Positions 1 to 60,526 of a stretch of DNA of 64,000 nucleotides are shown here, piece after piece. Both the position numbers and the translations under genes were made by a program. Below the pieces are notes generated by a model that saw only the letters and a program-made list of their open reading frames with translations, made no database searches and was not told where the DNA came from. Location of the stretch: assembly GCF_030684315.1 (NCBI RefSeq), contig NC_081369.1, positions 2,718,689 through 2,782,688 of the forward strand, given 5' to 3'. Within the stretch, counting starts at the first letter, position 1. The number at the start of each line of letters is the position of its first letter. The stretch is from Stegostoma tigrinum. Its lineage: Eukaryota.

Positions 1-925
1 AGCTTGGTGGATGGTTCCTGTCCCTTATCATTAAGGTATACAATATCAGTGTTGGAATCAAACATATGGTTTAGGCCAATTTCACAGATGATTGCTCGAT
101 GTTTCAATGATAGGGAATATATAAGGGACATACCAGGCCTTCTGGCTATTGTTCCTAATGGGTCTCATTGTTGTTATCCAGCCATGTGCCATAAAACACA
201 GATGCCTGAAACAGATGAGGTCGGGTGATAAACTGGCATCATGTTTGCTGCTGTATTAAATTAAAAAATACAAAGAATAGGCTTTCTGTACTGTGACATT
301 GCAATAACTCTTTACCAAAGCATTTAGAAGCATTAAGTTCATAATGGTGAGGTGAAATAATTCTTTCCAAGACAACAAATGTCCGGATTTCAATACATTG
401 GTCACTTCATGTCCTTGTGCTAAACTGTATAGTGGGAGCAGCTTACAATGCATTCGGTTAGCTTGGGCACTCGGATTTATCTGGGTATGATACATTTCCT
501 AAACGATGCTACTAGTAAACTTCCAACCCATGTCAGTCAAAAAACAACTGGCTAAATCTCTATGGGCTAATGATTTCGTCCACATAACAAGTAGTTTAAT
601 AGCTTCCTTGGTTGGTGGCCCAGCTACAACAATTTTATATTGTAGAGTTTCAATACCCATGGAAGTTAACCAATGTATTCCTACCTCTGCTCAGCCAAGA
701 ATAGTGAGGAGTGCATCTCTCTTGCCTTTCCTTTGTTACGTTAATGGTCTGTATTCAGAGCGACAGTGGGCAGTTAAATTATTTCCAATCGTTATCCCCA
801 CTGTCACAGTAAAAACAATATTCGGTTTGAACACTGGAGTACAAATGTTATAAAACTACCAAAAATGGGGTAACTCTGTGGCATTTAATGGGCCTGGATT
901 AAAGATCAACCATAATCATCCCCAA

Positions 926-1384
926 TATTTCTTGGGGAAATGTTTGAAAGAAAATTTCTGAAGAAGGGTCTCGGCCTGAAGATGTGTGTGATTCAGTATA
1001 TAGCTAATTTATTGGACTGAAATACTTAATGCAATGCATGAATTAATAATTAATAATATGATTTAATGTGTGAGTTATAATCTATGCATATATGCATGAA
1101 GGCGAAATGGTTAGGTTAAACTGCAGAGATATACATTAAACATGTGAGTTTCACACTGCCTTTCCTCTCCTTGGGGACTTTGGCAATGGCAGTACTTGGA
1201 GGTCTATCTCGAATACCACGGCACCTGTCTCAAGCCCAGTAGCTTCAGTCCAATGAATGGGGCAAAGTGCCCAACATTATTACCATTCTAAACCTGAAGG
1301 GCCTCAGCCTCCCTGCTCCTCTGATGCTGCTTGGCCTGCACCGTGTTATTTCAGATTCTCCAACATCTGCAGTTCCTACTATCT
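926..1384. mobile_element. Penelope-derived mini-element inserted in pol, itself interrupted by an LTR-derived copy
   Basis: 15-bp TSD CATAATCATCCCCAA at 911-925 and 1385-1399. The equivalent pol sequence near 30018-30035 is uninterrupted. The ctgaagaagggtc...gatgctgcttggcctg...catctgcagttcc family signature is present. Confidence 0.8.
977..1295 (+). repeat. 319-bp near-identical copy of 2304-2622 (internal LTR segment)
   Basis: Direct comparison shows two substitutions. Flanked by CCTGAAG at 975-981 and 1293-1299. Confidence 0.92.
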
Positions 1385-1668
1385 CATAATCATCCCCAAG
1401 TTGGTTTGTGTCCCATTATCTCTGCTGCATTTTGACTCATCTGCTTAGCACCCAGCATATGAGCCACTACCAGGCAACATCACGCTCAGGAGCTGTGTCC
1501 CAAAGTCATAGTAAGAAACCAGTGCAGTGATGAGGTGTAATTGAGTTGTAAGGGATGTGCATCTTCAATAACCCAATGTCATCATAAAGTTTTGGGCCAT
1601 TTCTTTCGCAGTCCAGGTTTGCAGCTCACTGATTTTTTTTTTCCTCACTTTTTCAGGAATCACATGCT

Positions 1669-2099
1669 CTACCCAACCCATTGTATTCTCAGCAAAATAA
1701 CATTCTGGTTAGATTTCTGGGTTTTCTTAAGAATAAACTCTGAACCTCTATTCTGAAGCTGAGTCAAAGTTGCTATGTCAATGGCGAATGGGTCTTCTAA
1801 AGAGCCACATAGCAATATATCATCAATATAAAGGGCTGTTATATCACTGGAGAGAGAAAATATCTCCAGATCCTGGCTATTAAACCATGGCAGAGAGTTG
1901 GACTGTGCAAGTAGGCCCCTTGCAACCCACAAACTGTGTGCTCTCTGCCCTCCCATCTGGAAGGAAACTGATTCTGTGAATTCGCATCAAGGGCAATGGA
2001 GAAGAAAGCATGAGCGTGGTCGCGTACGGCATACAGTTCATCAGTTCCCAATGACACTAACTCCAGTAATGTTACAATATCTGGGAGAGCTGATGACAA
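1669..2099 (-). pseudogene. pol: Frameshifted retroviral reverse transcriptase fragment (ERV-L/S-like)
   Basis: LPDIVTLLE..YAVRDHAHAFFSIAL..SQNQF..WEGRE...YLHSPTLCHGLIAR and ITALYIDDILLCG, split over two frames. Confidence 0.85.
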
Positions 2100-2244
2100 T
2101 TCTGCTCCTAATCTCTTTACCAGCTACAGACAACCTAACACACTGAATTAATCATGAAAGGGCTGTCCGGAAACACTGAATGTTCCAACAGTCAAAGTGT
2201 CCTCTTCTTGAATATTTTGCTCAGATGCTGCTCGCAATGCCCAA

Positions 2245-3097
2245 TGCCTTTTTAGGCTGAAAGTCCCTAACTTGTTCTTGTAGGTCTGATCAAAATAATG
2301 ACATGAAGATGTGTGTGCTTCAGTATATAGCTAATTTATTGGACTGAAATACTTAATGCAATGCATGAATTAATAATTAATAATATGATTTAATGTGTGA
2401 GTTATAATGTATGCATATATGCATGAAGGCGAAATGGTTAGGTTAAACTGCAGAGATATACATTAAACATGTGAGTTTCACACTGCCTTTCCTCTCCTTG
2501 GGGACTTTGGCAATGGCAGTACTTGGAGGTCTATCTCGAATACCACGGCACCTGTCTCAAGCCCAGTAGCTTCAGTCCAATGAATGGGGCAAAGTGCCCA
2601 ACATTATTACCATTCTAAACCTAATGTTAAATGCTGTTTTTCTATGTTGTCATGTTTTCAATGGTTTTCCAGGCATTTTGCTGTGCAAGAACAAGTTATA
2701 AAATTGAGGTGCCAGTGTTGGAATAGGGTGGAGACAAAGTCAGAAGTCACACATACCAGGTTATAGTCCAAAAGGTTTGTTTGAAATAACAAACTTTGTG
2801 AAGGATGCTCCTTCCTCAGATCATTTTCACCTGATGAAGGTGCAGCTGCTGGAAAGCTTGTGACTCCACAAACCCTGTCGAACAATAACCTAGTGTCCTG
2901 TGACTTCTGGCAGAAACAAAAACACTTTCATAGTAGCTCCTTTTTTAACTGAATAATGCAGTTTCCCTCCTCGACAAAACAAGCTGTTTTGCCATAATCT
3001 TGTGATTTCCACTTGTCCTCAACTGCACATTTTCAAGTCCAATTAACCCTTATGGCTTAGCTTTAAGGTCTGTTCTGGAGATGTTTTAAGCCTCACA
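2245..3097 (-). repeat. 5' LTR of ERV copy A (contains a palindromic Penelope-derived insert at about 2738-2911)
   Basis: Aligns by eye with 28571-29223 and 32993-33826, sharing the cacactgcctttc..ggggactttggc.atg, tccaatga.tggg and ccaattaacc blocks. Confidence 0.75.
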
Positions 3098-3680
3098 CTT
3101 ATGGTAGTATGGCAACCAGAGCTGCACACAGTGGCCAGCTGTGGCCTTACCCAAGTCCTGTACAGCTCCAACCTATCCACCTTGCCCTTATAAATCTACA
3201 CTATTACTACTGAGAAAATATTTTCTGTATGTCTTCTTAATGACTCTGTTGAACTGCCCTGCGAACGTATGAATGTGTGGACAGAGCCCCAAACTTTTCC
3301 TGTTCCTTTGAGCTTCCTCATGTCATGCTCTTCAGTGACTGTCCCTGTCTTGTTACTTCTTCCAAAGTTTACTGATATCTTTGCATATTTTCAGAGTTAC
3401 ACTTAAGGTCTGTTCAAAATCTTTCCCTTCTCACCTTAAACCAAATCCCTCCAGTTTAGGACTCCCACAAACTGGAAAAAATACCTTAACTATTTACACT
3501 ATCCAGAGCCCTCATGTTTTTAAAAACCTCTCGAAAGTCACCTCTCAGTCTCTAAGGTTTCAGAGAAAATAGCCCCAGCCTATTCAGCCTCTCTCTGTCA
3601 CTTGAACCATCTAACCCTGGCAACATCCTTGCATATCTTTTCCGAATGCTTCCAAGTTTAGCAACATCTTTCCAAGCGCA
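3098..3680 (-). mobile_element. CR1 LINE 3' fragments
   Basis: accagagctgcacacag..gctgtggcct and cagcctattcagcctct..ccctggcaacatccttg are typical reverse-complement CR1 ORF2 3' blocks. Confidence 0.7.
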
Positions 3681-7271: not shown

Positions 7272-7432
7272 ACTTGGGAGAGACAGAGAGAGTGAATATT
7301 TGCAGATACCTGAAGAAAGGCTGAAGCTCTGAAAGCTTGTGTTTGCAAATAAACCTTTTGGACTATAACCTGGTGTCGTGGGGCTTCTGACCTTGTCCAC
7401 TCAATTCCAACATCGGCACCTTCACATCATCA
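6752..7432. mobile_element. Penelope-derived element with inverted ends, containing a (TG)n tract
   Basis: acaacaccagg..gctttcagagc..ttcttcagg at the left is the inverse of cctgaagaa..gctctgaaagc..cctggtgtcgtg at the right. Confidence 0.55.
7195..7270 (+). repeat. (TG)38 microsatellite
   Basis: Perfect dinucleotide run. Confidence 0.97.
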
Positions 7433-7440
7433 GCAAATAA

Positions 7441-8402
7441 TAACAAAGTGTGGAGCTGGATGAACGCAGCAGGCCAAGCAGCATTTCAAGAGCACAAAAG
7501 CTGATTTTTTGGGCCTAGATGCTTCATCAGAAAAGGGGGATGGGGAGAGGATTCTGAAATAAATAGGGAGAGAGGTGAGGTGGACCGAAGATGCATAGAG
7601 GAGAAGATAGGTGGAGAGGAGAGTATGGGTTGGGAGGTAGGGAGGGGATAGGTCAGTCCAGGGAGGACAGACAGGTCAAGGGGGCGGGATGAGGTAAGTA
7701 GGTAAGAAATTGAGGTGCAGCTTGAGGTGGGAGGAGGGGATAGATGAGAGAAAGAACAGGCTAGGCAGACGGGGATGAGCTGGGCTAGTTTTGGGATGCA
7801 GTGGGGGGAGGGGAGATTTTGAAGCTGGTGAAATCTACAGTGATACCATTGTGCTGCAGAGTTCCCAAGCAGAATATGAGTTGTTGTTCCCGCAACCTAC
7901 GGGTGGCATCATTATGGCACTTCAGGAGGCCCAGGAAGGATATGTCGTCTGAGGAATGGGAGGGGGAGTTGAAATGGTTTGCAACTGGGAGGTGCAGTTG
8001 TTTGTTGTGAACCAAGCAGAGGTCCTCTGCAAAGTGGTCCCCAAGGCTCCGCTTGGTTTCCCCAATGTAGAGGAAGCCACACCGGGTACAGCAGATGCAG
8101 TATACCACATTGGCGGATGTGCAGGTGAATATCTGCTTGATGTGTAAAGTCATCGAGGGACCTGCAGCCCAATGGTATCCATGTGAATTTCACCAGCTTC
8201 AAAATCTCCTCTCCCCCGACTGCATCCCAAAGCCAGCCCAGCTCATCCCCGCCTGCCTAACCTATTCTTCCTCTCACCTTTCCCCTCCTCCCACCTCATG
8301 CCGCACCTCCATTTCGTACCTACTAAGCTCAACCTGCCCCCTTGACTTGTCCGTCCTCCCCGGACTGACATATCCCCTCCCTACCTCCCCACCCATACTC
8401 TC
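7441..8402 (-). mobile_element. Penelope-like element 3' part (GIY-YIG endonuclease) with an inverted duplicate of its 3' end at 8159-8402
   Basis: ORF 7785-8153: FTCTSANVVYCICCTRCGFLYIGETKRSLGDHFAE..PVANHFNSPSHS. Segment 8159-8402 is the reverse complement of about 7620-7870. Confidence 0.9.
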
Positions 8403-19421: not shown

Positions 19422-19663
19422 CTACTGATGTGTCCATCCTTGTTTCAGTGGTTTCTCACCATGAGCCTCTGATCTTCAGGGTAGCATCCTCCTAGGCAGA
19501 CTTCAGGATACACAATGATGCAGAATCACTGACCAGAGACTGATAGCCAAGTTCTGTAGCCTCAATGGTGATCTTGTGTTCATATTGTGCTGCAGGCTAC
19601 TCCACCCCACTGTTCTATATCTGTAAAATATTCTTTACTGGCATGTCTTGCCATCATTATCAT

Positions 19664-19841
19664 NNNNNNNNNNNNNNNNNNNNNNNNNNNNNNNNNNNNN
19701 NNNNNNNNNNNNNNNNNNNNNNNNNNNNNNNNNNNNNNNNNNNNNNNNNNNNNNNNNNNNNNNNNNNNNNNNNNNNNNNNNNNNNNNNNNNNNNNNNNNN
19801 NNNNNNNNNNNNNNNNNNNNNNNNNNNNNNNNNNNNNNNNN
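19664..19841. other. Assembly gap (178 N)
   Basis: Run of N. Confidence 1.
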
Positions 19842-25016: not shown

Positions 25017-25475
25017 GAAACATGTGTTTTCTTTGAAAGGGCCTGAGTTGTATCCTGTGGCTAAATTAAAAATCTGAGAAAAAAAAATGTTCAAAAGTAA
25101 TGGATATTATCGCTATGTGGACACGGGTAAAAACCTAAAGACTGGAGTTTTGTATTGGTCTGACCGATATTGCACCCAAGCCTGGTGGGTTATGTGAGTG
25201 GATATTGACAGTGTCAGTAGCTTCAACATCTCGACCTAGATTTTGCTCCAAGTGCAGTTGTCTATCCGTGTTATCACTTCCGCTCACTGTTACCACAACT
25301 GGGCCGCAAATGAAAACGCCTGCATGTTGCGCCCTCGGCAAGGAATTAGTCACGTGCTTCTTGACGGCAGACAGACGCAAGTGATTAAAATCGATGCATA
25401 ACTGATATTCCAATAAACGTTCATCAACTCTCTTCTTACATCCAATGTATGAGCAGCCAGAGTTTTATTGTTGCT

Positions 25476-25530
25476 ATGTTTGTAAGTGGGTCACTGTGGA
25501 ACTTATGTTTTCTGTGCATTTCATATCCAG
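25476..25530 (+). pseudogene. Copy 1 leader exon MFVSGSLWNLCFLCISYP
   Basis: 55 nt from ATG to a phase-1 donor G|GTACAC. Same length and donor context as the copy 2 and copy 3 leaders. Confidence 0.8.
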
Positions 25531-25858
25531 GTACACGCTCTTTCTTGCAGTGTTTGAATTTTTTTATCAAGACGGAAGAATAATTGAACTGATATTTGAC
25601 GGATGATCGGGCACTTTTTTTCGTATGTTTTTCACGTCAGATTTCATTGTCCCAAGAATCCTCTGGATAAGTGAAAACAATATTTGCATAGTTCAGTTGG
25701 GGCAGAAATTCAGACAGTGGAGGAGAATTCAAAGAGCAAAACATGCTAAATTGCTACCATATGAATGTATTAAATTAATTATGTTACTTCACGTTGCTGC
25801 TGATGTTCCTTGTTTAAGCATTATGTATATATATATCCTATTTATCTTTTGTTAACAG

Positions 25859-26170
25859 TTGCTTTGTGCACTTCGGACAATGTCATACCGGAGTTTAGGC
25901 AAATCAAGACCATGATAAATACAACAGCTATCATGCGATGCCATTTCTCCTTCGAAGTCAACCATTCAAACGCAGATGTGTTCTGGTACAGATAAGGCAG
26001 TGAGACGCTTCTAAAGGAAGGCAGAAGAATACTCTTCAATGTAAAGAGAGGGGGAGCCTACCTTCATCTCTTTAATGTGACTGTCCTAGACGCTGGCACA
26101 TATTACTGTAGAGTCAAAAATCAGCATCAAACGTTCTCAGGGAAACAAGCTACACAACTTGTTGTCTACG
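25859..26170 (+). pseudogene. Copy 1 V-set exon with germline G strand
   Basis: ..TAIMRCHFSF..DVFWYR*GSETLLKEGRRILFNVKRGGAYLHLFNVTVLDAGTYYCRVKNQHQTFSGKQATQLVVY. Cys, Trp and DxGxYxC motifs. AACAG acceptor, G|GTAAGT donor, phase 1/1. Confidence 0.92.
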
Positions 26171-26870
26171 GTAAGTGTCACCGCAGCAAACGTGAAGTTT
26201 TGGTTCCGTTGAAGAGTGAATGCGAGTTGGCAGTTTCATTTCCATAAATATAGACAAAGAATATAAAATCGCTCACTTCTTCGGAATGTCTTGTTCACTA
26301 ATGTGGTAAAAGAAGAAATCATCACCAGCGACAGGACACAGTTCAGCAACTGTACTGTATCAGCAAAAGGTATTTAATTTTGTTTTGCATCGAAAGCTAA
26401 TGCAAAACTTCCAAGTGAAGCACTTTTTTTACAATCTAAGCATGGAGTAACAGAGCGAATTGTCCAGAGGTTATTGGCAATATTAAGCCCGTTAAATGTC
26501 ATTTTATTTTCAATTTGAAAAGCCAAGTTCCTATTCCCCTTGTTTGGACTGCGACCGTCTCAATGCCTGCAATCCAGTTCCCAAACTGCCAATTGCGAGG
26601 AGTGTACAATATGAAAGTTCAAACATATTTGCATTAATTAATATGGGCACAAAGTAGTATTCAATTTTGCAGAATATGCAAGTGATGTAACAATTGCATT
26701 AGGAGGTCCCGACGTGATAAAGGTAACAGCAACCCCTACCAGTGTAAATAGCAACAATCAATGCAGCTGCGATACCCAGAATTAACAATTGGTTCGTTCA
26801 TTAAATCGTTTCATTTTGGAATAAAAGTCTAATGTTCACATGTATTCAAATGTTGTTATTTACAATTCAG

Positions 26871-27176
26871 CTTCACCAGCTCCCCTGAAAATTGCATCGA
26901 TCCACTCCAAAGACCCTTCACCTGCTTCTTTCAAGCTGCAATGTAGGACATCTGGCTTTTATCCGGAAGACTTTAAACTTATTTGGTACAGAAACGGTGC
27001 ACAAATCTTCACTGGATTTAGAAATGTACAGCAGGCAAAAGGCGAGGCACTTTCTGAAGTGGTCAGTTCCCTGGACGTGCCAAATATACCCGAAAGTAAT
27101 ACAGTCTACATGTGTCAAGTCTATCACGTTTCGATCTCATTTCCAGTAAATGCCAGCTACACTGTTACAAAAGAAG
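26871..27176 (+). pseudogene. Copy 1 C1-set exon (reading frame intact)
   Basis: FKLQCRTSGFYPEDFKLIWYRNG...VVSSLDV...VYMCQVYHVSI. C1 signatures CxxxGFYP and YxCxVxH. TTCAG acceptor, G|GTAAGA donor. Confidence 0.95.
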
Positions 27177-27346
27177 GTAAGATTCTATGCCACGTTGTAC
27201 GGTAATCTTTTAGACATTGTTTTAAAAGTTTGCCGAACTTCGAAGAGATTACTGCAGTCAATTCCCTCTGATTATAGCCATCCTGAAATTTGATACTGTT
27301 GTCTGGTTAAAGCTTTCCTTTCTTCAGGGGTGGAGTGGACTTGTTG

Positions 27347-27708
27347 GGCGGCACGGTGCGTCAGTGGTTAGCACTGCAGTCTCACAGCGTCCGGGGCCGG
27401 GGTTCGATTCCAGCCTCGGGCGATTGTGTGTGTGGAGTTCGCACATTCTCCCCGTGTCTGTGTGGGTTTTCTCCGGGTGCTGCGGTTTCATCCCACAGTC
27501 CAAAGATGTCCTCGCTCGGTGCATCGGCTATGCTAAATTTCCCGTAGTGTTCAGGGGTGTGTGGGCTAGAGGGGGCTTGGTTCTGGGTGGGATGCTTCAA
27601 GGGGCGGGGTGTGTGGGCTAGAGGGGGCTTGGTTCTGGGTGGGATGCTTCAAGGGGCGGTGTGGACTTGTTTGGCCTAAGGGCCTGTTTCCCCACTGTAG
27701 GGAATCTA
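27347..27708 (+). mobile_element. HE1-type V-SINE with an exact 52-bp tandem duplication (27554-27605 / 27606-27657)
   Basis: gggcggcacggtgcgtcagtggttagcactgc head, V core and a directly visible repeat. Confidence 0.9.
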
Positions 27709-28084
27709 GTCTCATCATTAGGCTTATTCCGAATGTGTTGTCAGGTGAGGTATTGCCAAAAGCGAATATTCGCCATTGAGAGGTCCCATAATTTTAATAA
27801 AAAGCAGAATGCTGCAATTCATTTCAGAAGATACGTTCAGGGTTAAATTCAATACCTGGATACGTTGAAGAGGGAAAACGAGATAGAGACGAAAATCAGT
27901 CAATAAATGTCGAGGTGGAAAAACACAGTTGGTCAGAGAGCATTCAAGGTGCAGGAAAGTCAATGTTTCAGGCTGAAGTGTTGAGTTTCCTGCTCTTGGG
28001 ATGCTGTCTGACTCGCTGTGCTTTTGCAGCTCCACATTTATTGATTCTAGCTTCCAGCATCTACAGTCGTAACTTTCTGAGAGA

Positions 28085-28570
28085 TGAATATCATCATGGT
28101 GTATAGCCCAGAAACAGACCTTTGGTCCATTGGGTGTAGCCCATCTATTTAAGAGGAAAGGTTAAAATACACAGGTCACACTTTCCAGTACTTGGCACAC
28201 AGCCTTGAATGTTGTGAAGTTTTCATTGCTCGTCCACGTCCATTCCTATTTCTACCTTGCTCTACCCTCCCAGGTAGTGAATTCCTGACGCCCGACATCC
28301 TTCCCCATTTCGTTCTAAATCTCTTGCCTTTCCCTCCACAAATTATGACCTCACGCTATTCACCCTTCAACTAAAGAGAACAATTGCTTTTCATCCACCC
28401 TGTCAATGCCTTCATCATCATGTGCACCTCAATCAGGCCTCACCCCAACCTTCTGTGCTCTAAAGAAAACAGTCCGTGCTTCTCCAGAAATTTCAAAGCT
28501 CAAATGTTCCTAACCAGACAGCACCCTGGTAAATCTCCGCTGCACTCTCCCCAGTGCTATCAAATCTTTC
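28085..28570 (-). mobile_element. CR1 3' fragment split by the provirus (continues at 33827 to about 33960)
   Basis: ...ctctccccagtgctatcaaatctttc joined to ccttcctatagagtcgtgactagaaccgcacacagtattc reconstitutes the CR1 consensus. Confidence 0.8.
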
Positions 28571-29223
28571 CGTTTTGTTAGGCCTATAGTGTGTAACGGA
28601 TTATTTTAAGGTCTGATGGAAATGATTACAAGAAGACAAACAGATTCATTATTTCGCTAATTTATTCAGTTAATACTTCATGCTTATATGAATTAATAGT
28701 CGACATTTTAAATTATGGACATGTATTAAAGTTAAGAGGATAGGTTAAAACACTCAGATATATGTTTAAAAAGTGATTCTCACACTGCCTTTCGGACTCG
28801 GCGGGGACTTTGGCGATGATAGCACTTGGAACTCTATCTCAGGTTCCACGGTGCCCGTCTCACGAACTCCAGCCCAAAGCTGAAAATCCAATGACTGGGT
28901 CAACGTCCCCAATATTAATACTGTTTTGAATGTACTATTACACGCTTTGTCACCATTTCATAAGACGTGCAGTACTGTCCCCGGTATTCCACTGTGCAGA
29001 AAAGAAGCTGAAAAACATCTTCCAGATGGCTCCTTTTTCACTGCATGTCACTGTTTCCCACCCAATGTCATGCAGTTACGTCTGAGTCAAAGAAGGCCGT
29101 TTTTACGCTAAAACTATCATTTTCCACTTGTTTTCAGTTGCTGAATTCCGCGTCCAATTAACTCATTAATGGTTAGCCCTGAATGGTCTGGTTTGAAGAT
29201 GTCAATTCTAAGTCGACATTACA
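28571..29223 (-). repeat. 3' LTR of provirus B
   Basis: Homologous to 32993-33826 and ends ..CATTACA on the plus strand. The adjacent caacaccc is a degenerate PPT (GGGTGTTG on minus). Confidence 0.78.
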
Positions 29224-29599
29224 CAACACCCAGTGATGTCTTCAAAATAGATTATCAAAACCTTATACAAGCACGTACATGCTGGTCGTCAGCTCCAAGT
29301 TCTTTATACATGCGGTATAGTTTACAGGCCATTATACATGTACATAAAGACTAGAAACAAACAGTTTACAATAATGTAAACAACTGGATACCATAAAAGT
29401 TAGCGTACTGCTGAAACTTTTGGTGACCACCTGTTAAATATGACCCACTAATGATACATAGTAAGGGTTCCTACGTTGTCAACTTTGTGAATCAATTGAT
29501 CGCAGCTTTGTTATGGCAGTTCCTTGCTATAAGAAGCCGTGGTGTAATGTTGTCAAGTAAGAACTGATCTGCTGGTGCTCTGGCAAGGAAAGCCTGCCA

Positions 29600-30830
29600 C
29601 TTCTAAAATATCACATGTGTGGGTGCTATGAGCAAACTTCTGAACCCTGTCGCTCAAAAACCAATTGCTGAATCTCTACGGGCTAATGGTTTTCCCCCCA
29701 CAGCAAGTAGTTTAATACCTTTCTCAGTAACTTGCCTAGCTTTAGCAATACTAGTTTATAGAGTCTCAATACCCACGGAAGTTAACAAATCTATTCTCGC
29801 CTCTGCTCAGCCTAGAATAGTGACGAGTACATTTTCCCTGCCTCGCCTCTGTAACGTTGACCGCGTGCACACCGAGCGGCAATGCGAAGGTTATTTATTA
29901 CTCTTCGTTAGCTCTGCTGTCACGTTTTAAACAATATCCGGCTTGGAGTGCAAGTGTCATACAACTGCTGAAGATGGGGAACTGTGCAACACTTAATGGA
30001 GCTGAATTCATGGCCCACATAACTATCCCCAAGATGGTTTACGTCCCTTTATCTCTGTCGTAATTTGACACACCAGCTGATCATCCCGCATATCAGCCAC
30101 TGCAGGGTAATACCTCTCTCAGGAGCTGTTTCTCAAAAGTCTTAGTAAGAAACAAGTTCTGTGGTGAGGTGTAATTAGGTTAAGTGAGGCACATGCCTTC
30201 TCCAATAACCTAACATCGCCACAAAGCTTTGGGTCATAAGAGGTTTGAGCCTGAACCTCACTGATGTTATTTCTCACATTATCTGAAATTACATCCTCTC
30301 CCCTGTCCATTGTATACTCAGCAAAATAACACACCGGCTTGGTCTCTGCATTTTCTTAGGATTAATTTCCCAGCCTTTATTCCGTAGGTGCTGAGTTAAA
30401 GTAGCCGTGTCTTCTGCTGTTGCTTCCTCTGAAGGGCCATGTAGCAATGTATCATCAAAATAAAGGGCTGTTATATCGCTGGGGAGAGGGAACATCTCCA
30501 GATCCTGGCTATTAAACCATGGTAGAAAGTTGCACTGTTCAAGTCGCCCTGCAGAACCTACAAACTGAGTGTCCTCCGCCCTCACTCGTGAAAGCAAACT
30601 GATTCTGTGAATTCTCATCAAGGAAATGAAAGCATTAGTTTGGTAGATTCTGGCAAACCATTCATCATCTCCCAATGACTGTTGCTCCAGTAATATTACA
30701 ATCTCTGGGAGAGCCGATGGCCAACGCTGCGATGTGTTAGTTTAACCGTCAGTCAATGGCCGCCATTCTCCAGTTACCAACCGGTTTCTGTACTGACCAT
30801 ACAAGGCAGGTATACAGGAAGACAGCAGAT
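29600..30830 (-). pseudogene. pol: pol remnant (RT and RNase H)
   Basis: DITALYFDDTLLHGPSEE..LTQHLRNKGWEINPKKMQRPSRCVILLSIQW matches the class III RT pattern YIDD..RGWEINPxKIQGP..FLGxQW. Confidence 0.85.
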
Positions 30831-31499
30831 CATACAGCTTTTCCTGTCACTGACCCTTCAATCGTATCTGCGATATCCTTATGTCCTCAATACTGCTCAC
30901 CGTTAACAATTCGTGAAGGAATGGAATGTATTGGGGTTCCCACTTAGCTTTCCCAACTACCACATTCATCACCATTCATACACCAAAACAAGACTTTCCT
31001 ACTTCGGTTCATACTTCCATCCCCCTCACAACATCCATCAGCATAATATTTTTACTTATGCTGCATATTAACACAGATACCATCCGCGGTGGTCTATTCT
31101 CCATTACCAATCGCACCAGTGCCCGTCCCGCCGGTGTTTCTGCTTTCTCAAATCTATTCATCATCGTCTTACTTCCCGCGTGTCGGGAAGATAGCAAGCC
31201 AAGCTACAATGTGCTGTTTATTCCCATTTTTCCAATGAATTGTGACACTGAGTCGACTCCCCCTTTTGATCACACCTCAGTGTCCCGGCCACTTACCCAG
31301 TGGAGGGAAGAGGCTTCAGAATCAGAATTGGGGTCTCACACCATGGGAGGGGTCAATGTCCCGTTTGGTCCCTTACCGGACTTACAAATCTTCTTCCAGA
31401 GGGAACATATAACACTGATGGTGATACCATGTATTTTCTGTCTATTTCAGACCTGTCTGTGCCTGCTTTCCGTAAAACGGTAAACATTTCATTTTGCTG

Positions 31500-32350
31500 A
31501 CTTTCCCCATTCGCTTCCCGTCCTTCCCTGGGTTTCCCTTGTTACCATTCTCCTGCATGAGCTTGGCGCACTTCCGTATCCACTTACTGTCCAAACAACA
31601 TTACAACTTCACCGCCTGGTCGGCCCTGAGCTCGCCCCAACATTGCTAGCAGCGTCCCTCTGAGATGACTTGGTCCAATGTGCATGAGCTGGATTCTCAT
31701 TCGAGTCGTGAAAGCTTCTTGGTCCATCCCTGGAAATTGTTCGTGTCCAATCCCATTAGTGCAGCGAACTCTGGAATCGGGCTCTTCCCTTGTGATCTTG
31801 TCCGCCACCAGACAGCTTCCTGCTCCCATTACATGAAAGGTCCGGATACTTAGCTCTCACTGCTATGCGTATCCATGCAGCTCATGCTTCTGTTCCCTGT
31901 GTTCCATGTAGAGCATTCTGTGCAGCTGTGTATTTCGACAAGGCTCCTCATCATTGAGAGAAACATGAGATGCCACGGAGTCCCAGAGCCGGGTTATCCA
32001 AGCTCCCAGTGCCCTGCTTTCTGCAGGGAGATTTTCCCCCAAATCCTGCAATTCTGACAGTGGTAATCCCGCATAATGCGAGCATGCTGTGGGCGGTCTG
32101 CTGGCCGTGTCCCCTTAGCAGTGTTAGTTACTAGCGGGCGCGCTGACACTCCTCCCCAACAGTCTGCACGTGCTGCAAATCGGATGAATATGAGTCCCAG
32201 TGATTGGAGACCAGTTGAAGTTAATAAAAACGGCACTTCAGCTGGATTCACTTTCCATTTTTTTGCGGCTCTCCCACTTTTTGTGCTGTAATGTGGCCAT
32301 TTTGCAGGTTTTACAGTTTGACTGTTCTTACCAGCCCGGCAGTTACACAC
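31500..32350 (-). pseudogene. gag: gag remnant
   Basis: LGAWITRLWDSVASHVSLNDEE and DQEAFTTRMRIQL..P..LRGTLLAML resemble ERV-L-type gag blocks (WxLRxWD). Confidence 0.65.
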
Positions 32351-32972
32351 ACCATTGTTCTGCCCTTCTCACACTCGGATCACTTAATCTGCACAATCCT
32401 TTCTCCCCCCGCACTCCAAACCTCCCCCCCACCCCCAACCAACAACCACCATTGTATACATAGTGCCCCCTAAAGACTTCACCAGCTCTGGTGAAGGGTC
32501 GTCTCGACCCGAAATGTTAACTTGCTCTCTCTCCATGGATGCTGCCTGACCCGCTGCGATTCCCACTACTTTTTGCTTTCATTCCAGCCTTAACGAGCCT
32601 GATTCTACTCGGCTTTATCTGCTCTTTCCTGAGCCGTCCGAGCCACCCTCGCCAGCGCAGCGGACAATGTCCCTTTTGCCTCCTTTCAATCTCGCACTTC
32701 CCGGGGCAGCATACGGGAGGCCGCTCAGCAGGATCCACCTCATGTGGGTAACACCCTTGGTTTACTTTGGGAAACCTATTTCTCCGAGACAGTCCTTCCT
32801 GGCACCGAGTCATCCCTTGGGATTCTGCTCCTAATCCCTTTCCCAAAACTAAGTGGTCCTGCCGCAGATAACTAGTCACTAACTCAGGGAACCAATGATT
32901 ACAGGACCATCCCGGGAGACAGAACGCTTCCAGAGCCAAAATATCCTTCATTTTCTTCAACATTTTGCTCAG

Positions 32973-32990
32973 ACTCTGCACACAGCACCA
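32973..32990 (-). promoter_or_regulatory. Primer-binding site, tRNA-Ser-like
   Basis: Minus strand TGGTGCTGTGTGCAGAGT, 2 nt from the LTR end. 14/18 match to the complement of vertebrate tRNA-Ser(CGA) as recalled (TGGCGCTGTGAGCAGGAT). Copy A retains GCGAGCAG at the same place. Confidence 0.65.
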
Positions 32991-32992
32991 AA

Positions 32993-33826
32993 TGTATTGT
33001 TCAGGTGCTAGTATCTAACTGGCTTTTTTAAATTCTGGTCAAAATAATTACTGGTGTATTTCAATATGTACAATGTATTGAGCTAAAATACTTGATACAT
33101 AACTGAATTACAACTGAGAAGCAGTGAAAACTGGCGAAGTTGGAGTCATAGATAACACAGTGTGGAGCTAGATGAACACAGTAGGCCAGGCGGCATCAGA
33201 AGAGCAGGAAAGCTACTTTTCGGGTCAGGACCCTTTTTCAGAAGTGAATTTCTGAAGAATGGCTCCGACGGAAGCATCAGCTGTCCTGCTCCTCTGATGC
33301 TGCCTGGCCTGCTGTGTTCATCTAGCTTCACATTGAATTACACCCTTTCGTTTACACTACACGTATATTAAAGCCAACCGGTAACGTTAACCTACTAAGA
33401 TATATATTAAGCATGTGAGTTTCACACTGCCTTTCCGCTCCCCGGGGACTTAGGCGATGTCAGTACCTGGAGCTCTCTCTCCAATTCCACTGCGCCTGCC
33501 TCACTCCCAATAGTGAAAGTCCAATGAGTGGGGCACAGTCCCTGATATGAAACCTGTTTTGAATCTAATGTTACATACTATTTCACAGTTTGGTCGTATT
33601 TTCAACGCTTTTCCACGCATTCCACTGCGCAATAACAGGTTAAAACACTTTCAAGGTGGTTCTTTTTTAATTGCATAATATTGTTTCCCTCCAAGCCGAA
33701 AGATGCTGTTTTGCAGTAACCTAGTAATTTTCTACTTGTTTTCAATTGCACATTGTCGTGTTCAATTAACCCTGAACGAATCATTCTCACCGTCTGTTTT
33801 GCAGATAGTTTTAAGCCAACACTACA
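32993..33826 (-). repeat. 5' LTR of provirus B (Penelope-derived insert at about 33113-33333, TSD TGAATTACA)
   Basis: TGTA...TACA termini, homologous to the 3' LTR. Confidence 0.8.
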
Positions 33827-34131
33827 CCTTCCTATAGAGTCGTGACTAGAACCGCACACAGTATTCCCGCTGTGGACTAGGTCCTAAAACTCCAAAGTAA
33901 CCTCTCCCCTCTTATAATCTGTACCATTCCAGACAAAAACATGTGCCCTGTATGTTTCTCTGTGGCTCAGCTGAACAAAGAGACTGCAACATTGAAATTC
34001 TGAGACTTTATGTACTCTTTGTATCGGATATGCAAGACTGTACAATTGACAATGATAGACATGACATTTAAACCTGTATATTTACAGCTTCTGTTCTAAT
34101 TCCTAATTTTGAATTTATATTCACATTACAG

Positions 34132-34245
34132 ATTCTGCTTCTAAAATCAATATTACTATGGCTGCTACTGGTGCTCTTCGTGTACTTGTAATTCTCATAT
34201 TGACAGTGATGATTGCCAAAGGGGTTCTGATCTTTATCTCTAAAG
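34132..34245 (+). pseudogene. Copy 1 TM exon (D)SASKINITMAATGALRVLVILILTVMIAKGVLIFISK
   Basis: TTACAG acceptor, AAG|GTATGA donor, phase 1/1, hydrophobic stretch. Homologous to 4213-4326. Confidence 0.85.
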
Positions 34246-34661
34246 GTATGAACAGGATAGAAATGATACACTGAAATTAGTGTATTTGGGAGCTGAATTT
34301 CTGAATTGTACAATTTAAATGACGATTTTATGTGAAACCTCTTTCAAACATATACCTTGCTTCACATCAAGTATGGAGTAAGAAGATTTGAAGTTTCAGT
34401 TTGAGAAATTGGATGAGTGCAGGTCAAAATTGTATTGATGAAATTCATTGCTGAAAGAATTTTCTGTTGCTTCAACTCAGAAAACATAAATTCAAAGCAT
34501 CTGTGTGTAACATTTAGAGCTCTATTGCTGAACTGTTGTTCCTGTTGCATCCTGTTTATAAACACTGATTAGTATTCGAATTGTTTTTGGTTTCGTTATT
34601 TTGCTTATGCGTACAAATTCAGCCTTTATTGTTGGTGAGTAATGTCATTTTTATTTCTCAG

Positions 34662-34707
34662 GTAGGAGAAAGAAAAATCAATCAATCGAACTCAGTATGA
34701 AGATATG
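34662..34707 (+). pseudogene. Copy 1 short cytoplasmic exon (..EKSINRTQYEDM in the frame compatible with the next exon)
   Basis: Pyrimidine-rich TCTCAG acceptor and ATG|GTGAGG donor. Entering the YEDM frame from the TM exon needs a 1-nt shift. Confidence 0.55.
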
Positions 34708-36021
34708 GTGAGGCCAATTTCCTTCATTGTGTTTATTTTAATTTTTAAGTCTATTTGAACAAGTTGAGCTGAGAACACAAACGTGTATTCCTAACATTTC
34801 AGGAAGAGTCTTGAACGTTTCATCAGCTCTCAAAAACACAGCATCAGCTGAATAAAAGCACAATAAAGAAAATAGAATGTAATCAGAAGTTTCACGAACT
34901 TGCAACTGTTTCAAATTGTCAAACATAGCTGCCAAGTCGCCTTGAGTTCTGTTTTCATTCGCACTAACCAAGTGACAGCATACTGAATAATTTTGCTACA
35001 TTGGTTACAGACATTATAATCAATGTTGGTTAAATTGGGCTGATGACTGTTTGAATGGTAGGTTCCCAGGTGCAAGTAGCAATGAATCCTCCTCCCCACC
35101 CCCCTTCCTTTCTACGCTATTCCAAATTAACTCATGCATTAGTCTGAGTTTGGTGATTTTGTCTGACTTCTACCAAGCGACTCTACCAAAGAGCTCAATA
35201 TGCAGACAGCTTGCAAAAGTTGGCTTCTTTAGAAAGCTTTTTATTGTAGGCTGTCTCGCAGTTCGTGCAACGTGCTTCAGCACCATGCAATCTTGGAAAA
35301 CAAATAATCAAGCTGGTGGAGTGATGCAACCCTCTCTCATTTTTAATTTTCAACATGTGACTGTCAGTGACATGTGAGAGGCAGCTCCATGTCTGTGGCA
35401 CCTGAAAAAGAGCAGGAGGGACTTATTCAGAAAAAAATTTTTGGCAAAAGTTGAAATCTTTGGTTGATCACACCAAGGGACACAGCACAATTACACATAT
35501 TTATTCTTGTTTACAGTTGAATGCAGAGTATACCAGCAGATTGCCTCTTTAAATGCATTTTAAAGCAGTTAAAGTCTTTAAATCAAATGGACCACTTTCT
35601 TATCTCTGTTTCAATGGTGGATCTGAATTTGCTTTTAAAAAAAAACTTCATTCTCCTTCGTTGAGTAGAATGCTGCAAAAAATACTCGACTCTTTCATTG
35701 CATCTGATACCTGCAGCTCCTCCCTGACAGCAATGTTGCTAAATGATCTGGACTGCAGTCAAGAAAGCTGGTATGCTGCTGGGCTCTTGACAGGATGCAA
35801 TTATTGGCACCAAATACTGGCCTTGTCACTGACGTTCACATCCTATTTAAAAATAGTATATTGTGCAAAATAGACCCACTTACATGCTGTAGCTGCAGCA
35901 AAATTTAAATTCCTTTCTTGGAGGTCTTCAAAAAATTATGCCAAAGAATTTACTCCAATACTACACGTCTTTCTGTGAAAATGTTGCAGCTGCACTGGTG
36001 TAGGTGACAGAATAAAGCCCT

Positions 36022-36049
36022 CTGATGAAGGGTCTAGGCCCGAAACGTC
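36022..36049 (+). ncRNA. Minimal hammerhead ribozyme motif (Penelope type), best-preserved copy
   Basis: CTGATGA-A-GGG(TCTAGG)CCC-GAAAC-GTC: catalytic core, 3-bp helix II, palindromic ACGT in place of helix III, GUC cleavage triplet. Confidence 0.7.
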
Positions 36050-37503
36050 AGCTTTTGTGCTCCTGAGATGCTGCTTGGCCTGCTGTGTTCATCCAGCTCC
36101 ACACTTTGTAATTTTGGATTCTCCAGCATCTGCAGTTCCCATTATCACTCCTCTGATGTACAGATGCTTTGTTCAGCCTGTGTTTTATTGTTTCACGAAC
36201 TGTGGATCAGATGGAAAGAGAAAAAAAATCTATGATTGAGAATTACCTCACAGATGACCAAAGAGTCCATTTTAGAGCCCTGAAATATTGCAGTTAACGT
36301 TTTAGACAAAAGTCACATTTTTCATTGACACTCACCTGATCATTTTCCTTCCTAAAGAATTGACACTTTTCTGACTTAATACATCAATAATTTACTTTGA
36401 ACATATGATCTGGCATCAGGTATACCTTGTGAATCCTTTGAAAGCATGTTGTACCTTCGTCTTCACTTCACACTTCGACACCTTTATTTATGACCGTTTA
36501 GATGGCCCATTGAAATAATTACCTTTCCTATCCAGAAGGGACCAAGGTGATTCTAAAATTAATTTTCTAATTGCATTGTTAAGGACAGTTATTCCTTCTG
36601 TCTAATTGACCTACTAATGTTACAAATTTGAGGTGAGGGAAAGGTTAGCCAAATCCTGCATCATCTATCATCCAAATGAAAGACATTCGTAACAAAAGCA
36701 GAAATTGCTGGAAAAGCCCAACAGGTCTGGCAGCATCAGGGAAGAGAAATCAGAGTTAATATTTCAAGTCGAGTCACCCTTCCTCAGATCGATGTTGCTA
36801 ATATATTTCAAATAGTCGCCACTTATTATTTTAGTATGAAGCAGCGGGAACTGAGACTTTTTATATCATTATTATATAAAGACAAAATTATTTTTGCCTT
36901 ATTTAATAAACGTTACTGCATGTTCAATTTGTAACACAATGTATTGGAACAGGAATTCACCTCTCAGAATTCAAAAACCTAATTACATTGAACTGATGAA
37001 TGCACTTTTCAGCAGAGCACTGCACCATTTCCCCGGTAACTTTACATTAAAATTATATCAACATTTATAGTTTTGAAAGGTAATGTTTACTTGTGATTAA
37101 GTGGATATTCCAGGCAAGGAACAGTTCAGAGTAAGAAACTGTAAAGTTTAATGATTGTAACGAAGTGTTAGCAAAGCCAGTACAACAAGCTATAGCAACA
37201 AATTACTGCAGATACTGAAAACAACAAAGGCTGGAGACCACAGCAGATCAGACAGCATCCACGGTGAGAGAGCAAGCTAAAATTTTGAGTACTGGTGGCT
37301 TTTTATCAGAGCCCAGATGAAGGGTCATTTAGTCTGGAAATATTCGCTTGCTCTCCCTCTGCATGGGAATTGTTTGACCTGCTGTGATCTCCTGCAGTCG
37401 TTGTTTTCAGTATAACGAACCAATTGTTCATGTCAAGAATGCACAATTGACTTTTTACTCCAAAACAAAATAATCAAACGAATGATTAATCTTGACTTTG
37501 AAG

Positions 37504-37612
37504 AGAAAACGAGAGATGTCTGAGGATAAGGGGACTTTTGCAGCTCTTGATCAAGTTGGTTCTAAGGATGACTTAATATCTAAACAACAGGAAGAAATCA
37601 CAATCTCTCAAG
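37504..37612 (+). pseudogene. Copy 1 cytoplasmic exon RKREMSEDKGTFAALDQVGSKDDLISKQQEEITISQ
   Basis: AG acceptor, AAG|GTACAT donor, open frame. GTFAAL and ITISQ look like Tyr-less ITIM relics of the last-exon motifs. Confidence 0.6.
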
Positions 37613-37744
37613 GTACATTAAAGATCATATGTGTCAATAATAAGTTTGTTTCTCATAATGAGTTGATTTTGAGCTGATCTTTGCATAGTTTTCATCTCGA
37701 ATGATTTAAGTGAATGGTAATTCTACTTCAATGTTGTTTTTCAG

Positions 37745-37862
37745 ACAAAACAGAGAATGGCTAACTTACCTTGCTCTGAAATTCAGTGATTCCAGTACAT
37801 CATTGAAATCCAAGCATGAAGAAAAAAGTGCAGCGTACACAGCGGTGAAAAGCAGTCACTAA
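37745..37862 (+). pseudogene. Copy 1 terminal exon with ITIM-type motifs: ..LTYLALKFSDSSTSLKSKHEEKSAAYTAVKSSH*
   Basis: TTTTTCAG acceptor. LxYxxL plus YTAV 24 residues apart. Phase-1 splicing gives DKTENG*, so the motif frame is shifted by 1 nt. Confidence 0.75.
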
Positions 37863-56888: not shown

Positions 56889-58414
56889 TAAGTTTCATTT
56901 AAGAAGTTAATCACACTGGAAAACAACAACACTTGATTGTGCCCACAGAACAAGGAGCCAACAAATCAAATCATATTATCGAGGATTTAATGTGAAGCAT
57001 TGCACTTAAAGGGCACGTCCAAGCAAAAAGAACTTGTGAAATGATCAATGGTGTCTGTCTCTGATATCCGTTCAGGCAACAGGTTCCAGATAACTCCCAC
57101 ACTCTGGCATAAACTGTTTAATCATCTCCCCGTTAAGCTTTTCCATCAACTTCTTTAAATCTATAATTCCCAAATCACTGACCTCAATATAACGGCTAAT
57201 GACCTCTTCCTCATCTACTATGTCTCGGCTCATCTCTGTTTTATGCATCCCAATGAAAATCGCTCTGAGGCTCGTCTTGTTTCAACGTCAAAAACTTAAT
57301 CTAATCCAATCAAGTCCCAACAACAACCTACTTCATACCTCTGCACCGCTCGGAGTGTCATCATTTTTGTGGCGGTTTTCAGTTACAAAATCAGCAGTTC
57401 ATAATTGAAAAGACATGCAGTTTTTGAAGTCAAAAAATAATCATGTGCTTGTTGACTCACACATACGTAAGTGTTTAATCTGGAGACAGAGACAAGCGTT
57501 TCAGAAGCATTTGTCTTTCCTGTTCTCAGTCACAAATGATGGTCTCAGATTTTACCCGCAACATGTCTGTGTGGCATTTACTATGGGATGTTTATCTGCT
57601 GTGTATCTTGTGTGCAGGTACACATTTCTTGTGCTGCGCATTCGCTGTTCGTGATCAAGTCGCAACGTGCTCTGACAAGCACGTTTAATAAATGAATGGA
57701 TATTTCTTTTTATTGTTGTCTCTTTCTTTCAAGTATTCCCAGAACTCGTTTGACACTGGGTCTGTCAGAAAAAAAAAATCAGTTATGACAATAGTTTAAA
57801 AATGGGAAAATTAATTGAAAAGTAAAATTTGGTAAATTGCTTTCGCCACAGTGACCAGGAATAATGATGTTATTTGAATTGTGCAGAACGTCCTTCTTGC
57901 TTAATCTCTGTGTGTTTCCTTGGTTGACAGTTGCTGTGGGCAATTCGGCCAAAGAGAAAATGTGCAGAGAGATTCTTCAGTTCGCATGCAATGCCCTTTC
58001 TCTTTTGAAATCGATCTCTCAAATGTTGTTGCTTACTGGTGGAGAGAAGGTAACAATACCTTTCTGAAGAAGGATGACAGGAAGTTATTCGCTGTCGTTC
58101 GCGGAGCAGCCTACATTGGTCTTGTGAATGTGACTGCCCGGGACGCTGGAACATATCACTGCGCAGTCACATTTAGCATCAAATGGTTGGTAAAAATGCT
58201 GCTGTGCAACTTGCTGTATATGGTAAGTGTCACCGCAGATAAACACGGAGTCTTAGCTGCTTAAAAACAAACAACAGCAGTAAACATATCAATTTGTTAG
58301 ATCCAGACATATTGTGCAAAATATTTGCACTTAGTTAAAATGAAATGTGTTCCAGAATGCGGAAACTTTGAAGAACCAGTAAAGCATCAAAGTTTCAGAC
58401 CTACATTGTATTAA

Positions 58415-59225
58415 AAATAAATCACTTGTGGGATGTGGGCATCACTGGCTGGCCAGCATTTATTGCCTGTCCCTAGTTGCCCTTGACAAGGAGATTGTGA
58501 GCTGCCTTCTTGAACCACAGCATTCCATGTGCTGTAAGTAGACTCACAGCATCATTTTGGTGGTAAATGACAGGTTTTGATCCAGTGAAACTGAAGGAAC
58601 AGTGATATATTTCCAAGTCAGGATGGTAAGTGACTTGCGAGAAACTTGCAAATGCTGGTGCTCCCACATGTTTCTTGCCCCTACCCTTCCAGATGGTCAT
58701 GATTGTGGTGTTGGATGATATTCTCTCAGGGTTTTTGGTAAATTTTTGCAGTGCATCCTAAAGATACACACTGTTGCGACTGAGTATCTGTGGCGGAGTG
58801 ACTGAAAGTGGTGCCAATCAAGTGGGCAGCTTTTTCCTAGATGGTGTCAAACTTCTTGAGTACTTTTGGACCTACAAGCATACAGGCAAATGGAGAGCAT
58901 TCCAACACACTCCTGACTTGTGCCTTGTAGATACTGGACAGGCTTTGGGGAGCCAGCAGTTGAGTTACTTGCTGCAGTATTCCCAGCCTCTGACCTACGG
59001 TTCTATTTAAATGGATGGTCCAGTTCTGTTTCTGCTCAATGGTAGCCCACAGAATGTAGATAGTGGGGAACTCACTGATGGTGATGCCACTGAATGTTAA
59101 GGCATGGATGGTTAGATTGTTTCTTATTGGAGATGGTGTTTGCCTGGCATTCATGTGGCCTGCATGCTCCTGACAACATTTCAGTCCAAGCCAGGATGTT
59201 GTCCAGTTCTTGTTGCACTTGGACA
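58415..59225 (-). mobile_element. LINE 3' end (CR1/L2-superfamily, second family) in the copy 3 V-C1 intron
   Basis: NWTIHLNRTVGQRLGILQQVTQLLAPQSLSSIYKAQVRSVLECSP. Confidence 0.85.
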
Positions 59226-60526
59226 TCGGTTGTTTTAGTTTTATGTATTTATGCATTATGCAGGGAAATTGATAGCAATACTTTAAATTTTTTTTGTATT
59301 TGAATATGGAGTGACAGGATGAATATCCTTGAAATTATTTGCAGTACTATGTGTTTTGAAATTGACGAAGCCAAGTTCTCAGTCCCATCACTTGGATGGT
59401 TTTTAGTTATTTTCTGGGATCCGGGTCCAATTCCTCACCCTGTTTGCAAAAGAAAGGTGCAGTATGACTAATCAATCATGTTTCTATTCTTAAGTAGTAA
59501 CAAATTCTGGAAACTCTTTTTTCTCTAAAAACACAGGAAGTATATTGAAAGTAATTGAAGTTTTTTTTAATTTAATGTGACAAATATGATATCAATTTCC
59601 TGTGCTGCTCATAAGTATAAATAATGCAACTGTCGCGCAGGAAATGAATTGTTTTGTTCATTTGAAAAGTACGTATTTTTGATGAAGACGCAACGTTGAT
59701 TTTACTAATTTGTATTATTTTCCATTCAGCTCCACCAGCTCCTCAGAAAATTGTCTCCATGCCATCCAAAGACTTCCTTTCTGCTTTGCTCAGACTCTAG
59801 TGCAGGACGTCTGACTTCTACCCAAAAGATGTTAACCCTACTTGGCACTAAAATGGTGCAAACAGCTTGACAGGATTTAGGAATGAACAGCAAGCAAAAA
59901 CTGAGGATCTTTATGAAGTCATCAGCACCTTGGGATTGCAAGAGTCCCTTGCGAGCGGGAAAGTTTAAACTTCTTAAGTATATCACATTTCAAGCTTATT
60001 TCCAGCAAAAGCCAGCTATATTGTTATGAGTGTAGGTAACATTTTATAGTGTGTTACATTAAATGCTCATGTGTCATTCAAAATGGTGAAATACGTAGAA
60101 AGTGGTTATGATAGTTATTTGCATGTGATTGTGTCAAAGTTGAATTTGGTTGCACTTGTAGGGATTAAGAGTTTTCTTCGTCTGCGTTGTTAGGAGCTGA
60201 TGTGCAGTTATCATGTATGACTTGGCAAAAACAAGAGATCTCTCCTGAGCAAAGGCCATGGAATTAATTTTATTTATAAACTTACAACGGGCTGAAAGGT
60301 CAATGTTAATTCTTGAAAAAGAATGGTCATATTGAATTTAAGTTTTCCATGAACCCCTCTCATCCAATAGTTCCAATTTGTTTTCCCATTCTTCAGATTG
60401 CCACATGCTTGATTAAATTCTGAACATATATTCAGAGCTGATTGGTTTGTAGCTGCAGAGAGAGTAAAATTATAAACTGAAGTTTATACCTTCGAGACAC
60501 TCAAGCAAATCTGAAAATAAGAGACA

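Follow-up and report, generated by a model that had tools for sequence, protein, structure and literature searches.

What kind of retrovirus left the element at positions 28571-33826 (minus strand) of this 64-kb stretch of the zebra shark genome (Stegostoma tigrinum, NC_081369.1, positions 2,718,689 to 2,782,688), how long ago did it integrate, and how is it related to a second element in the same stretch? The whole 64 kb that we analysed is called the window, the provirus at 28571-33826 copy A and its counterpart at 1-3105, also on the minus strand, copy B. Copy A is a genuine provirus, now a broken and decayed remnant. We consider it highly probable that both copies go back to one ancient event in which a class III endogenous retrovirus (ERV), related to Rh_ty_ERV3 of the whale shark and belonging to the ERV-L/ERV-S group (clade Huo), integrated into the germ line, and that this insertion was then copied together with a receptor gene. 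A first-pass annotation of the locus had correctly recognised the provirus and had overlooked its env remnant, the deletion of RNase H and integrase, and the host gene.

Copy A is bounded by a long terminal repeat (LTR) at each end and a target-site duplication (TSD), and it splits a long interspersed nuclear element (LINE) fragment:

28385..28570, minus strand: LINE fragment to the left of the insertion; the copy at 17047-17338 joins it to the right-hand part
28566..28570, plus strand: left TSD, 5 bp, or 6 bp if base 28571 is counted
28571..29228, minus strand: 3' LTR of copy A, outer terminus decayed, AATAAA present
32993..33826, minus strand: 5' LTR of copy A, TGT...ACA ends, later repeat insert at about 33116-33345
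33827..33831, plus strand: right TSD, 4 of 5 positions matching the left
33827..33925, minus strand: LINE fragment to the right of the insertion, joined to the left-hand part in the copy at 17047-17338

The two LTRs claimed in the first-pass annotation, each about 650 bp long and alignable over about 600 columns, were borne out by a local alignment score of 390, whereas 200 shuffles averaged 72 and never exceeded 101. Its description of them as very diverged, and of the insertion as old, is likewise supported by a Kimura two-parameter (K2P) distance of 0.36-0.44 (0.38 in one alignment; 0.44, confidence interval [CI] 0.375-0.517, in another; 0.36-0.42 by segment; 0.39 without CpG sites). The TGT and ACA ends that mark class III LTRs are both present on the 5' LTR. 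The flanks of copy A are consecutive stretches of a single unsplit repeat copy (17047-17338), in agreement with the split element proposed earlier, which we take to be CR1-like. The TSD is also real, with 4 of 5 identical positions between 28566-28570 and 33827-33831 (chance about 0.017) and 5 of 6 when base 28571 is included. The length of 5 bp first assigned to it may instead be 6 bp, as the overlap on the unsplit LINE copy covers 6 positions, yet the LTR register favours 5. No clear polypurine tract is left in copy A.

Contigs from two samples span both junctions of copy A with 0-9 differences, which excludes an assembly artefact, and no joint skipping the whole provirus was present among the joints listed. 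Summed contig depth, at about 1-6 times that of the flank, is no measure of copy number, and bisulfite runs provided less than 1x depth on the unique parts. The repeat of about 230 bp that later inserted into the 5' LTR (33116-33345) has 24 further matches across the window. It is an abundant, short repeat, often arranged in head-to-head pairs that make imperfect palindromes of about 190 bp, and it is very deeply covered in the contig data.

Between the LTRs, the retroviral genes that inform the class are the following:

30120..30771, minus strand: reverse transcriptase (RT) remnant, frameshifted, with the start of the connection/tether region; YFDD, GWEINP
30780..31400, minus strand: decayed stretch at the expected protease position, no DTG/DSG motif left
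31400..32080, minus strand: remnant of gag, ERV-L/Rh_ty_ERV3 type; Cys-His box absent

We located every motif named in the first-pass annotation: WITRLWD in gag (31980-32000) and, in RT, the Y(I/F)DD motif (YFDD at 30451-30462 in copy A, YIDD at 1819-1830 in copy B), GWEINPKKMQ (30346-30375, with GWEINP at 30358-30375) and IQW (SIQW at 30307-30318). The Pfam RVT_1 profile matched the RT remnant at E 7e-5, below the Pfam cut-off, and the Atlas recognised the domain (0.96, RVT_1) without giving a class. The class was read from the palm stretch of copy A (about 66 residues), compared by hand count with seven of the 22 labelled rows in Fig. S1 of PMC8278194. By hand count, about 35 residues were identical in guinea-pig ERV-L and about 32 in MuERV-L, followed by XtERV-S and a chicken ERV (about 25 each), AKV (about 21), chimpanzee ERV-S (about 17) and BFV (about 12). 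These counts correspond to about 50% identity to ERV-L and about 26% to ERV-S, the latter from a single row. GWEINP occurs in 2 of the 22 rows, both of them ERV-L, and a full-text search found no paper using this motif. Another stretch, HSPTLCHGL of copy B, is also found in XtERV-S. In gag, the best block shared with Rh_ty_ERV3 has 32 of 57 ungapped positions identical by eye, and the two sequences have the motifs SELQDLG and DQEAFT in common, each of which occurs once in the searchable part of a file of 452 consensus sequences. None of the three gag frames contains a Cys-His (CCHC) box, which decay could likewise have erased. The hand-counted RT identities and the gag match support the class III (ERV-L/S group) assignment that had been proposed. 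On sequence similarity, the provirus is very likely a member of this group (clade Huo), and its RT appears by hand count to be closest to ERV-L, not ERV-S.

The primer binding site (PBS) points to a serine tRNA:

32973..32990, minus strand: PBS of copy A, tRNA-Ser (TGA/CGA) type, 2 nt after the LTR

The site of each copy matches Ser-tRNA ends at 13-14 of 18 positions, the tRNAs compared not being the host's, and thus agrees with the 14 of 18 first reported. When we scanned metagenome contigs with a degenerate motif built from the PBS of both copies, at least 122 loci matched. Among the matches listed, 75 loci had a tRNA over the motif (79 tRNAs in all), and 72 of the 79 were Ser (45 TGA, 24 CGA, 2 GCT and 1 GGA). 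The window itself contains no tRNA genes. Judged on these non-host tRNAs, the primer was likely a Ser tRNA. The first-pass annotation had treated the Ser-type site as a pointer to HERV-S. We do not follow it there, because XtERV-S is Ser-primed yet ERV-L-related (PMC8278194) and the RT of copy A is nearer to ERV-L by hand count.

Downstream of RT, both copies carry the same large deletion and an env remnant:

29250..29990, minus strand: env remnant of copy A, lacking most of its ectodomain; the frame read has 10 stops
29306-29392, minus strand: hydrophobic anchor-like stretch in the env of copy A
29759-29848, minus strand: decayed cleavage site and fusion-peptide-like stretch in the env of copy A
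30000..30110, minus strand: deletion junction common to both copies, where the pol connection/tether runs into env

Both copies pass into env about 130 nt beyond the pol connection motif. No RNase H or integrase motif remains in either one, and the dUTPase region falls within the deleted part of both. Because the junction is common to the two copies, the deletion is older than their duplication. The env frame of copy B matched the Logan protein P0004 (E 2e-4 among 1.84 billion proteins), and a search with P0004 retrieved P0006, an uncharacterised protein of the sawshark Pristiophorus japonicus (59%). None of 200 shuffles reached the score of the copy B env against residues 4-214 of P0006, in each of two frames. 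The other two of the three matches to the copy B env, P0003 and P0005, were discarded as repeat-driven and unrelated.

P0004 and P0006, from Logan and the sawshark, are uninterrupted though partial env-like proteins without a Pfam or PDB match, and they are better starting points than the remnants of the window for defining the envelope type. Searches of six frames and four proteins (P0004 and P0006 being partial) gave no match to the CX6CC motif or the immunosuppressive domain (ISD), so the env is not of the gamma type of XtERV-S. Pfam (including PF00523 for the env relatives), PDB sequence searches and viral contigs gave it no identity either. Matches in the Atlas to a haemagglutinin (0.83) and a Monjiviricetes fusion protein (0.76) were below its lead threshold of 0.9. 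Two AlphaFold models of the env were unusable (predicted local distance difference test, pLDDT, 35-36), and a Foldseek search with the first of them returned no match at E 0.001. The layout is reminiscent of F-type fusion proteins, a likeness neither supported nor excluded by Pfam, PDB, the Atlas or the folds. Searches of open-licence literature turned up no account of such an env.

The host context reveals how the two copies are related. Copy A is antisense in the intron between the C1 and transmembrane (TM) exons of an immunoglobulin (Ig) superfamily receptor gene with V-C1-TM organisation, and copy B is in the same position of a paralog:

25859..26170, plus strand: gene A, Ig V exon, one in-frame stop
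26870..27177, plus strand: gene A, Ig C1 exon
34132..34246, plus strand: gene A, TM exon, carrying a lysine; paralog in B at 4213-4327
34662..34706, plus strand: gene A, short cytoplasmic exon predicted from splice signals
37746..37862, plus strand: gene A, putative last exon, two tyrosine motifs
57930..60035, plus strand: paralog C, V 57930-58222, C1 59730-60035 with stops; C1-TM intron extending beyond the window
1..3105, minus strand: copy B, env 2-915 (continuing beyond the window edge), RT 1385-2105, PBS 2225-2242, 5' LTR 2245-3105

Copy B occupies the identical point of the same LINE fragment as copy A, and the two have in common about 1.1 kb of outer flank and the paralogous TM exon. 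The gag/pro region is deleted in copy B, where 119 nt separate the PBS from RT. The 5' LTRs of the two copies (A5 and B5) have 97 private sites in common, and the other pairs of LTRs have 69 and 62. A and B have diverged neutrally, with a pooled ratio of nonsynonymous to synonymous substitution rates (dN/dS) of 0.93 (CI 0.61-1.51; 193 codons). Since junction, flank and deletion are common to both, since the private sites unite A5 with B5 and since dN/dS is neutral, A and B trace to a single insertion, and copy B is a duplicate of it that was copied with the paralogous gene. The RT at 1669-2099, which the first-pass annotation had proposed to combine with that of copy A in a consensus, is not a second member of the family but part of that duplicate, as the common junction, flank and LINE position indicate. 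Contigs about 85% identical to these copies exist, one of which joins host intron to LTR; they suggest that further paralogous copies are probably present elsewhere.

The sequence of events that we favour would begin with a virus of gag-pro-pol-env organisation that had a Ser-tRNA primer site and a non-gamma env. It integrated into the LINE fragment within the C1-TM intron, antisense to the receptor gene, a position that was presumably tolerated. Before the locus was copied, the provirus lost RNase H and integrase as well as the first part of env. Duplication of, or exchange between, tandem receptor genes then produced copy B, and probably more copies; the element would thus have spread with the receptor genes and not through viral replication. 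Separate losses followed the copying, of gag/pro in B and of the env ectodomain in A. Neutral decay has affected both, leaving what is presumably inert intronic DNA today.

Several observations weigh against this account. We found no relatives of the RT in the protein database, in PDB single-sequence searches (chance matches only), in viral contigs or in metagenome contigs. A PDB profile search put the RTs of murine leukaemia virus (MLV) and xenotropic MLV-related virus (XMRV) first, if weakly (E 0.016-0.07); we know of no solved structure of an ERV-L RT. Hand counting in PDF text underlies the class assignment, and Rh_ty_ERV3 is placed by the order of labels in the text of a figure, not by its topology. 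The TSD has an ambiguous length, 5 or 6 bp. The best PBS scores (15 of 18, with one copy) came from five of the 79 tRNA genes, typed as non-Ser, among the matches listed, and the motif scan was run without a control motif. Finally, the K2P distance between A and B is greater in the flank (0.32-0.51) than in the provirus (0.26-0.35), which is unexpected under plain duplication.

This last discrepancy would be explained if the host genes had duplicated first and the provirus-bearing intron had moved between them later, in a gene conversion or unequal crossover event whose breakpoint lay close to the TM exon. The A/B distance is indeed 0.26 in RT (CI 0.22-0.31) as opposed to 0.51 in the intron after TM (CI 0.42-0.63) and 0.44 in the TM exon, and the exons of A and C are 0.37-0.41 apart. 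Intervals are wide, however, for the intron immediately preceding TM (0.32) and for the LINE half (0.43), and gapped alignments of AT-rich sequence, together with selection on exons, could inflate those of the flank; we regard such a transfer as possible, though at appreciably less than even confidence. The identical internal deletion in A and B and the other genomic copies of about 85% identity might also be expected from independent integrations of a deleted, non-autonomous family mobilised in trans. That explanation is already largely refuted by the same LINE position, the common TM exon downstream, a B5 LTR nearer to A5 than to the 3' LTR of copy A, the neutral divergence and the contig joining host intron to LTR in another copy, and we give it hardly any credence. 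An affiliation with the ERV-S (HERV-S-like) lineage specifically would be in keeping with the Ser-type PBS and with the env, which is associated with ERV-S and absent from ERV-L (PMC8278194). It is improbable nonetheless, given that the palm has about 17 of 66 identities to chimpanzee ERV-S against 32-35 to ERV-L by hand count, that the ERV-L-related XtERV-S has a Ser PBS too, and that dUTPase, which separates ERV-L from ERV-S, was in the deleted part. Very improbable, finally, is a Ty3/Gypsy element, a class I ERV or a lokiretrovirus: although the best PDB profile match was to MLV/XMRV RT (E 0.016), and although the env lacks gamma motifs and that of lokiretroviruses is described as unlike the retroviral one (PMC7947760), the RT has ERV-L-specific stretches, gag matches an ERV of clade Huo, the CX6CC motif and ISD are lacking and the env relatives have no PF00523 match. 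For Ty3/Gypsy the rejection is indirect, through gag, the RT motifs and env, the RT alignment containing no Ty3/Gypsy row.

A single duplicated integration leaves the question of its age. Whale and zebra sharks differ by a dS of 0.0612-0.111 over approximately 50 million years (PMC13100897). On this clock, which is uncalibrated for the locus, an LTR distance of 0.36-0.44 translates into about 160-360 million years and an A/B distance of 0.26-0.33 into about 120-270 million years. The insertion is thus probably more than 150 million years old, an estimate from a borrowed clock that should be taken as a lead rather than a result. It could be much younger than its LTR distance implies if the region evolves fast or if LTRs of different proviruses recombined. 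Shark substitution rates do climb towards chromosome ends (PMC13100897), and LTR-dated ERVs of the elephant shark have distances of only 0.024-0.033 (PMC4422223), less than a tenth of the value of about 0.4 in copy A. We rejected the rate of 2.2e-10 per year from the same study (PMC4422223) for copy A, as it yields an impossible age of about 860 million years, itself a sign that clocks are unreliable here. Yet the matching TSD and the continuity of the LINE across the site, the A/B distance of 0.26-0.35, which is independent of the LTR pair, and the LTR distance of 0.39 that persists without CpG sites make a much younger insertion rather unlikely. Conserved exons of a gene that has been duplicated lie on either side of copy A, so orthology offers a test of its age, and such dating could place a firm lower bound on the age of class III retroviruses.

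The receptor genes form a tandem V-C1-TM Ig family in the window (25344-37862, 4213-4790 and 57435-60035). The two tyrosine motifs in the last exon of gene A are, we presume, similar to immunoreceptor tyrosine-based inhibitory motifs. Paralog B has a second, nearby copy of its TM exon (4119-4337 versus 5561-5780, 95% identity). Copy B has an insert at its pol/env junction (929-1384), a repeat element holding a 319-bp, 99.4%-identical copy of the 5' LTR of copy B (977-1295 = 2304-2622), which either arose by recent duplication at the locus or is an artefact of assembly. The intron that houses copy A also contains a tRNA-derived short interspersed nuclear element (27340-27660), presumably HE1-like, in which a 52-bp stretch is perfectly duplicated in tandem (27554-27657). 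Elsewhere in the window are two 86%-identical copies of an element (60509-61738 and 7429-8164) with a 298-amino-acid minus-strand frame without a Pfam match, whose look we assume to be Penelope/GIY-YIG-like, and a run of N (assembly gap) at about 19660-19840.

Viruses of the ERV-L/S type in sharks are already published, and the present locus adds one member. The earlier proposal that a lineage related to ERV-S and ERV-L infected cartilaginous fish is therefore correct but not new. Clade Huo, which includes the class III ERVs, is described as infecting all major vertebrate groups; by label order, Rh_ty_ERV3 is listed in it directly before No_fu_ERV1, HERVL, MuERVL and HERVS (PMC6001957, S2 Fig). 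RTs of cartilaginous-fish ERVs belong mostly to clade III (PMC11089739). Copy A resembles Rh_ty_ERV3 in gag, the only region compared, and differs from it in being far more decayed and without RNase H and integrase, while keeping LTRs, PBS and env. With ERV-L (HERV-L, MuERV-L) it shares about 50% of the RT palm by hand count, GWEINP, the YIDD of copy B, the lack of a Cys-His box and TGT/ACA LTR ends, and its TSD of 5 or 6 bp is compatible with a length of 5 bp. The PBS of ERV-L is of the Leu type, in contrast to the Ser-type PBS of copy A. Furthermore, copy A has an env and ERV-L has none (PMC8278194). XtERV-S of Xenopus is similar in its class III gag-pol, Ser PBS, TSD (5 bp, against 5 or 6 bp in copy A) and possession of an env, and a local genomic duplication of a provirus has been reported for it too; unlike copy A, it is intact and recent and has a gamma-type transmembrane protein with CX6CC and ISD (PMC8278194). 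ERV-S/HERV-S elements are like copy A in their Ser PBS and associated env and unlike it in the RT palm (about 26%, by hand count). A class I affinity finds no echo in the palm (about 21 of 66 for AKV, by hand count) or in the CX6CC and ISD searches. Lokiretroviruses have the env layout in common with copy A, namely a basic cleavage site, a fusion peptide, long helices and a membrane anchor without gamma motifs, whereas the RT and gag of copy A are ERV-L-like and its env has no PF00523 match; the excerpts of PMC7947760 report no lokiretrovirus from cartilaginous fish.

Measured against these systems, the provirus falls outside ERV-L proper by its env, outside ERV-S by its RT and outside the XtERV-S type by the kind of env it has. 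An env that is neither absent, as in ERV-L, nor gamma-type, as in XtERV-S, gives its fold a bearing on how frequently retroviruses gain or swap envelopes. At its boldest, and we think this unlikely, the locus would preserve a late-Palaeozoic or early-Mesozoic provirus with LTRs, TSD and PBS, datable through gene duplications, in which an env homologous to paramyxovirus F was carried by an ERV-L-like canonical retrovirus. If so, class III perhaps started out with such an env, which ERV-L later lost or XtERV-S exchanged for another.

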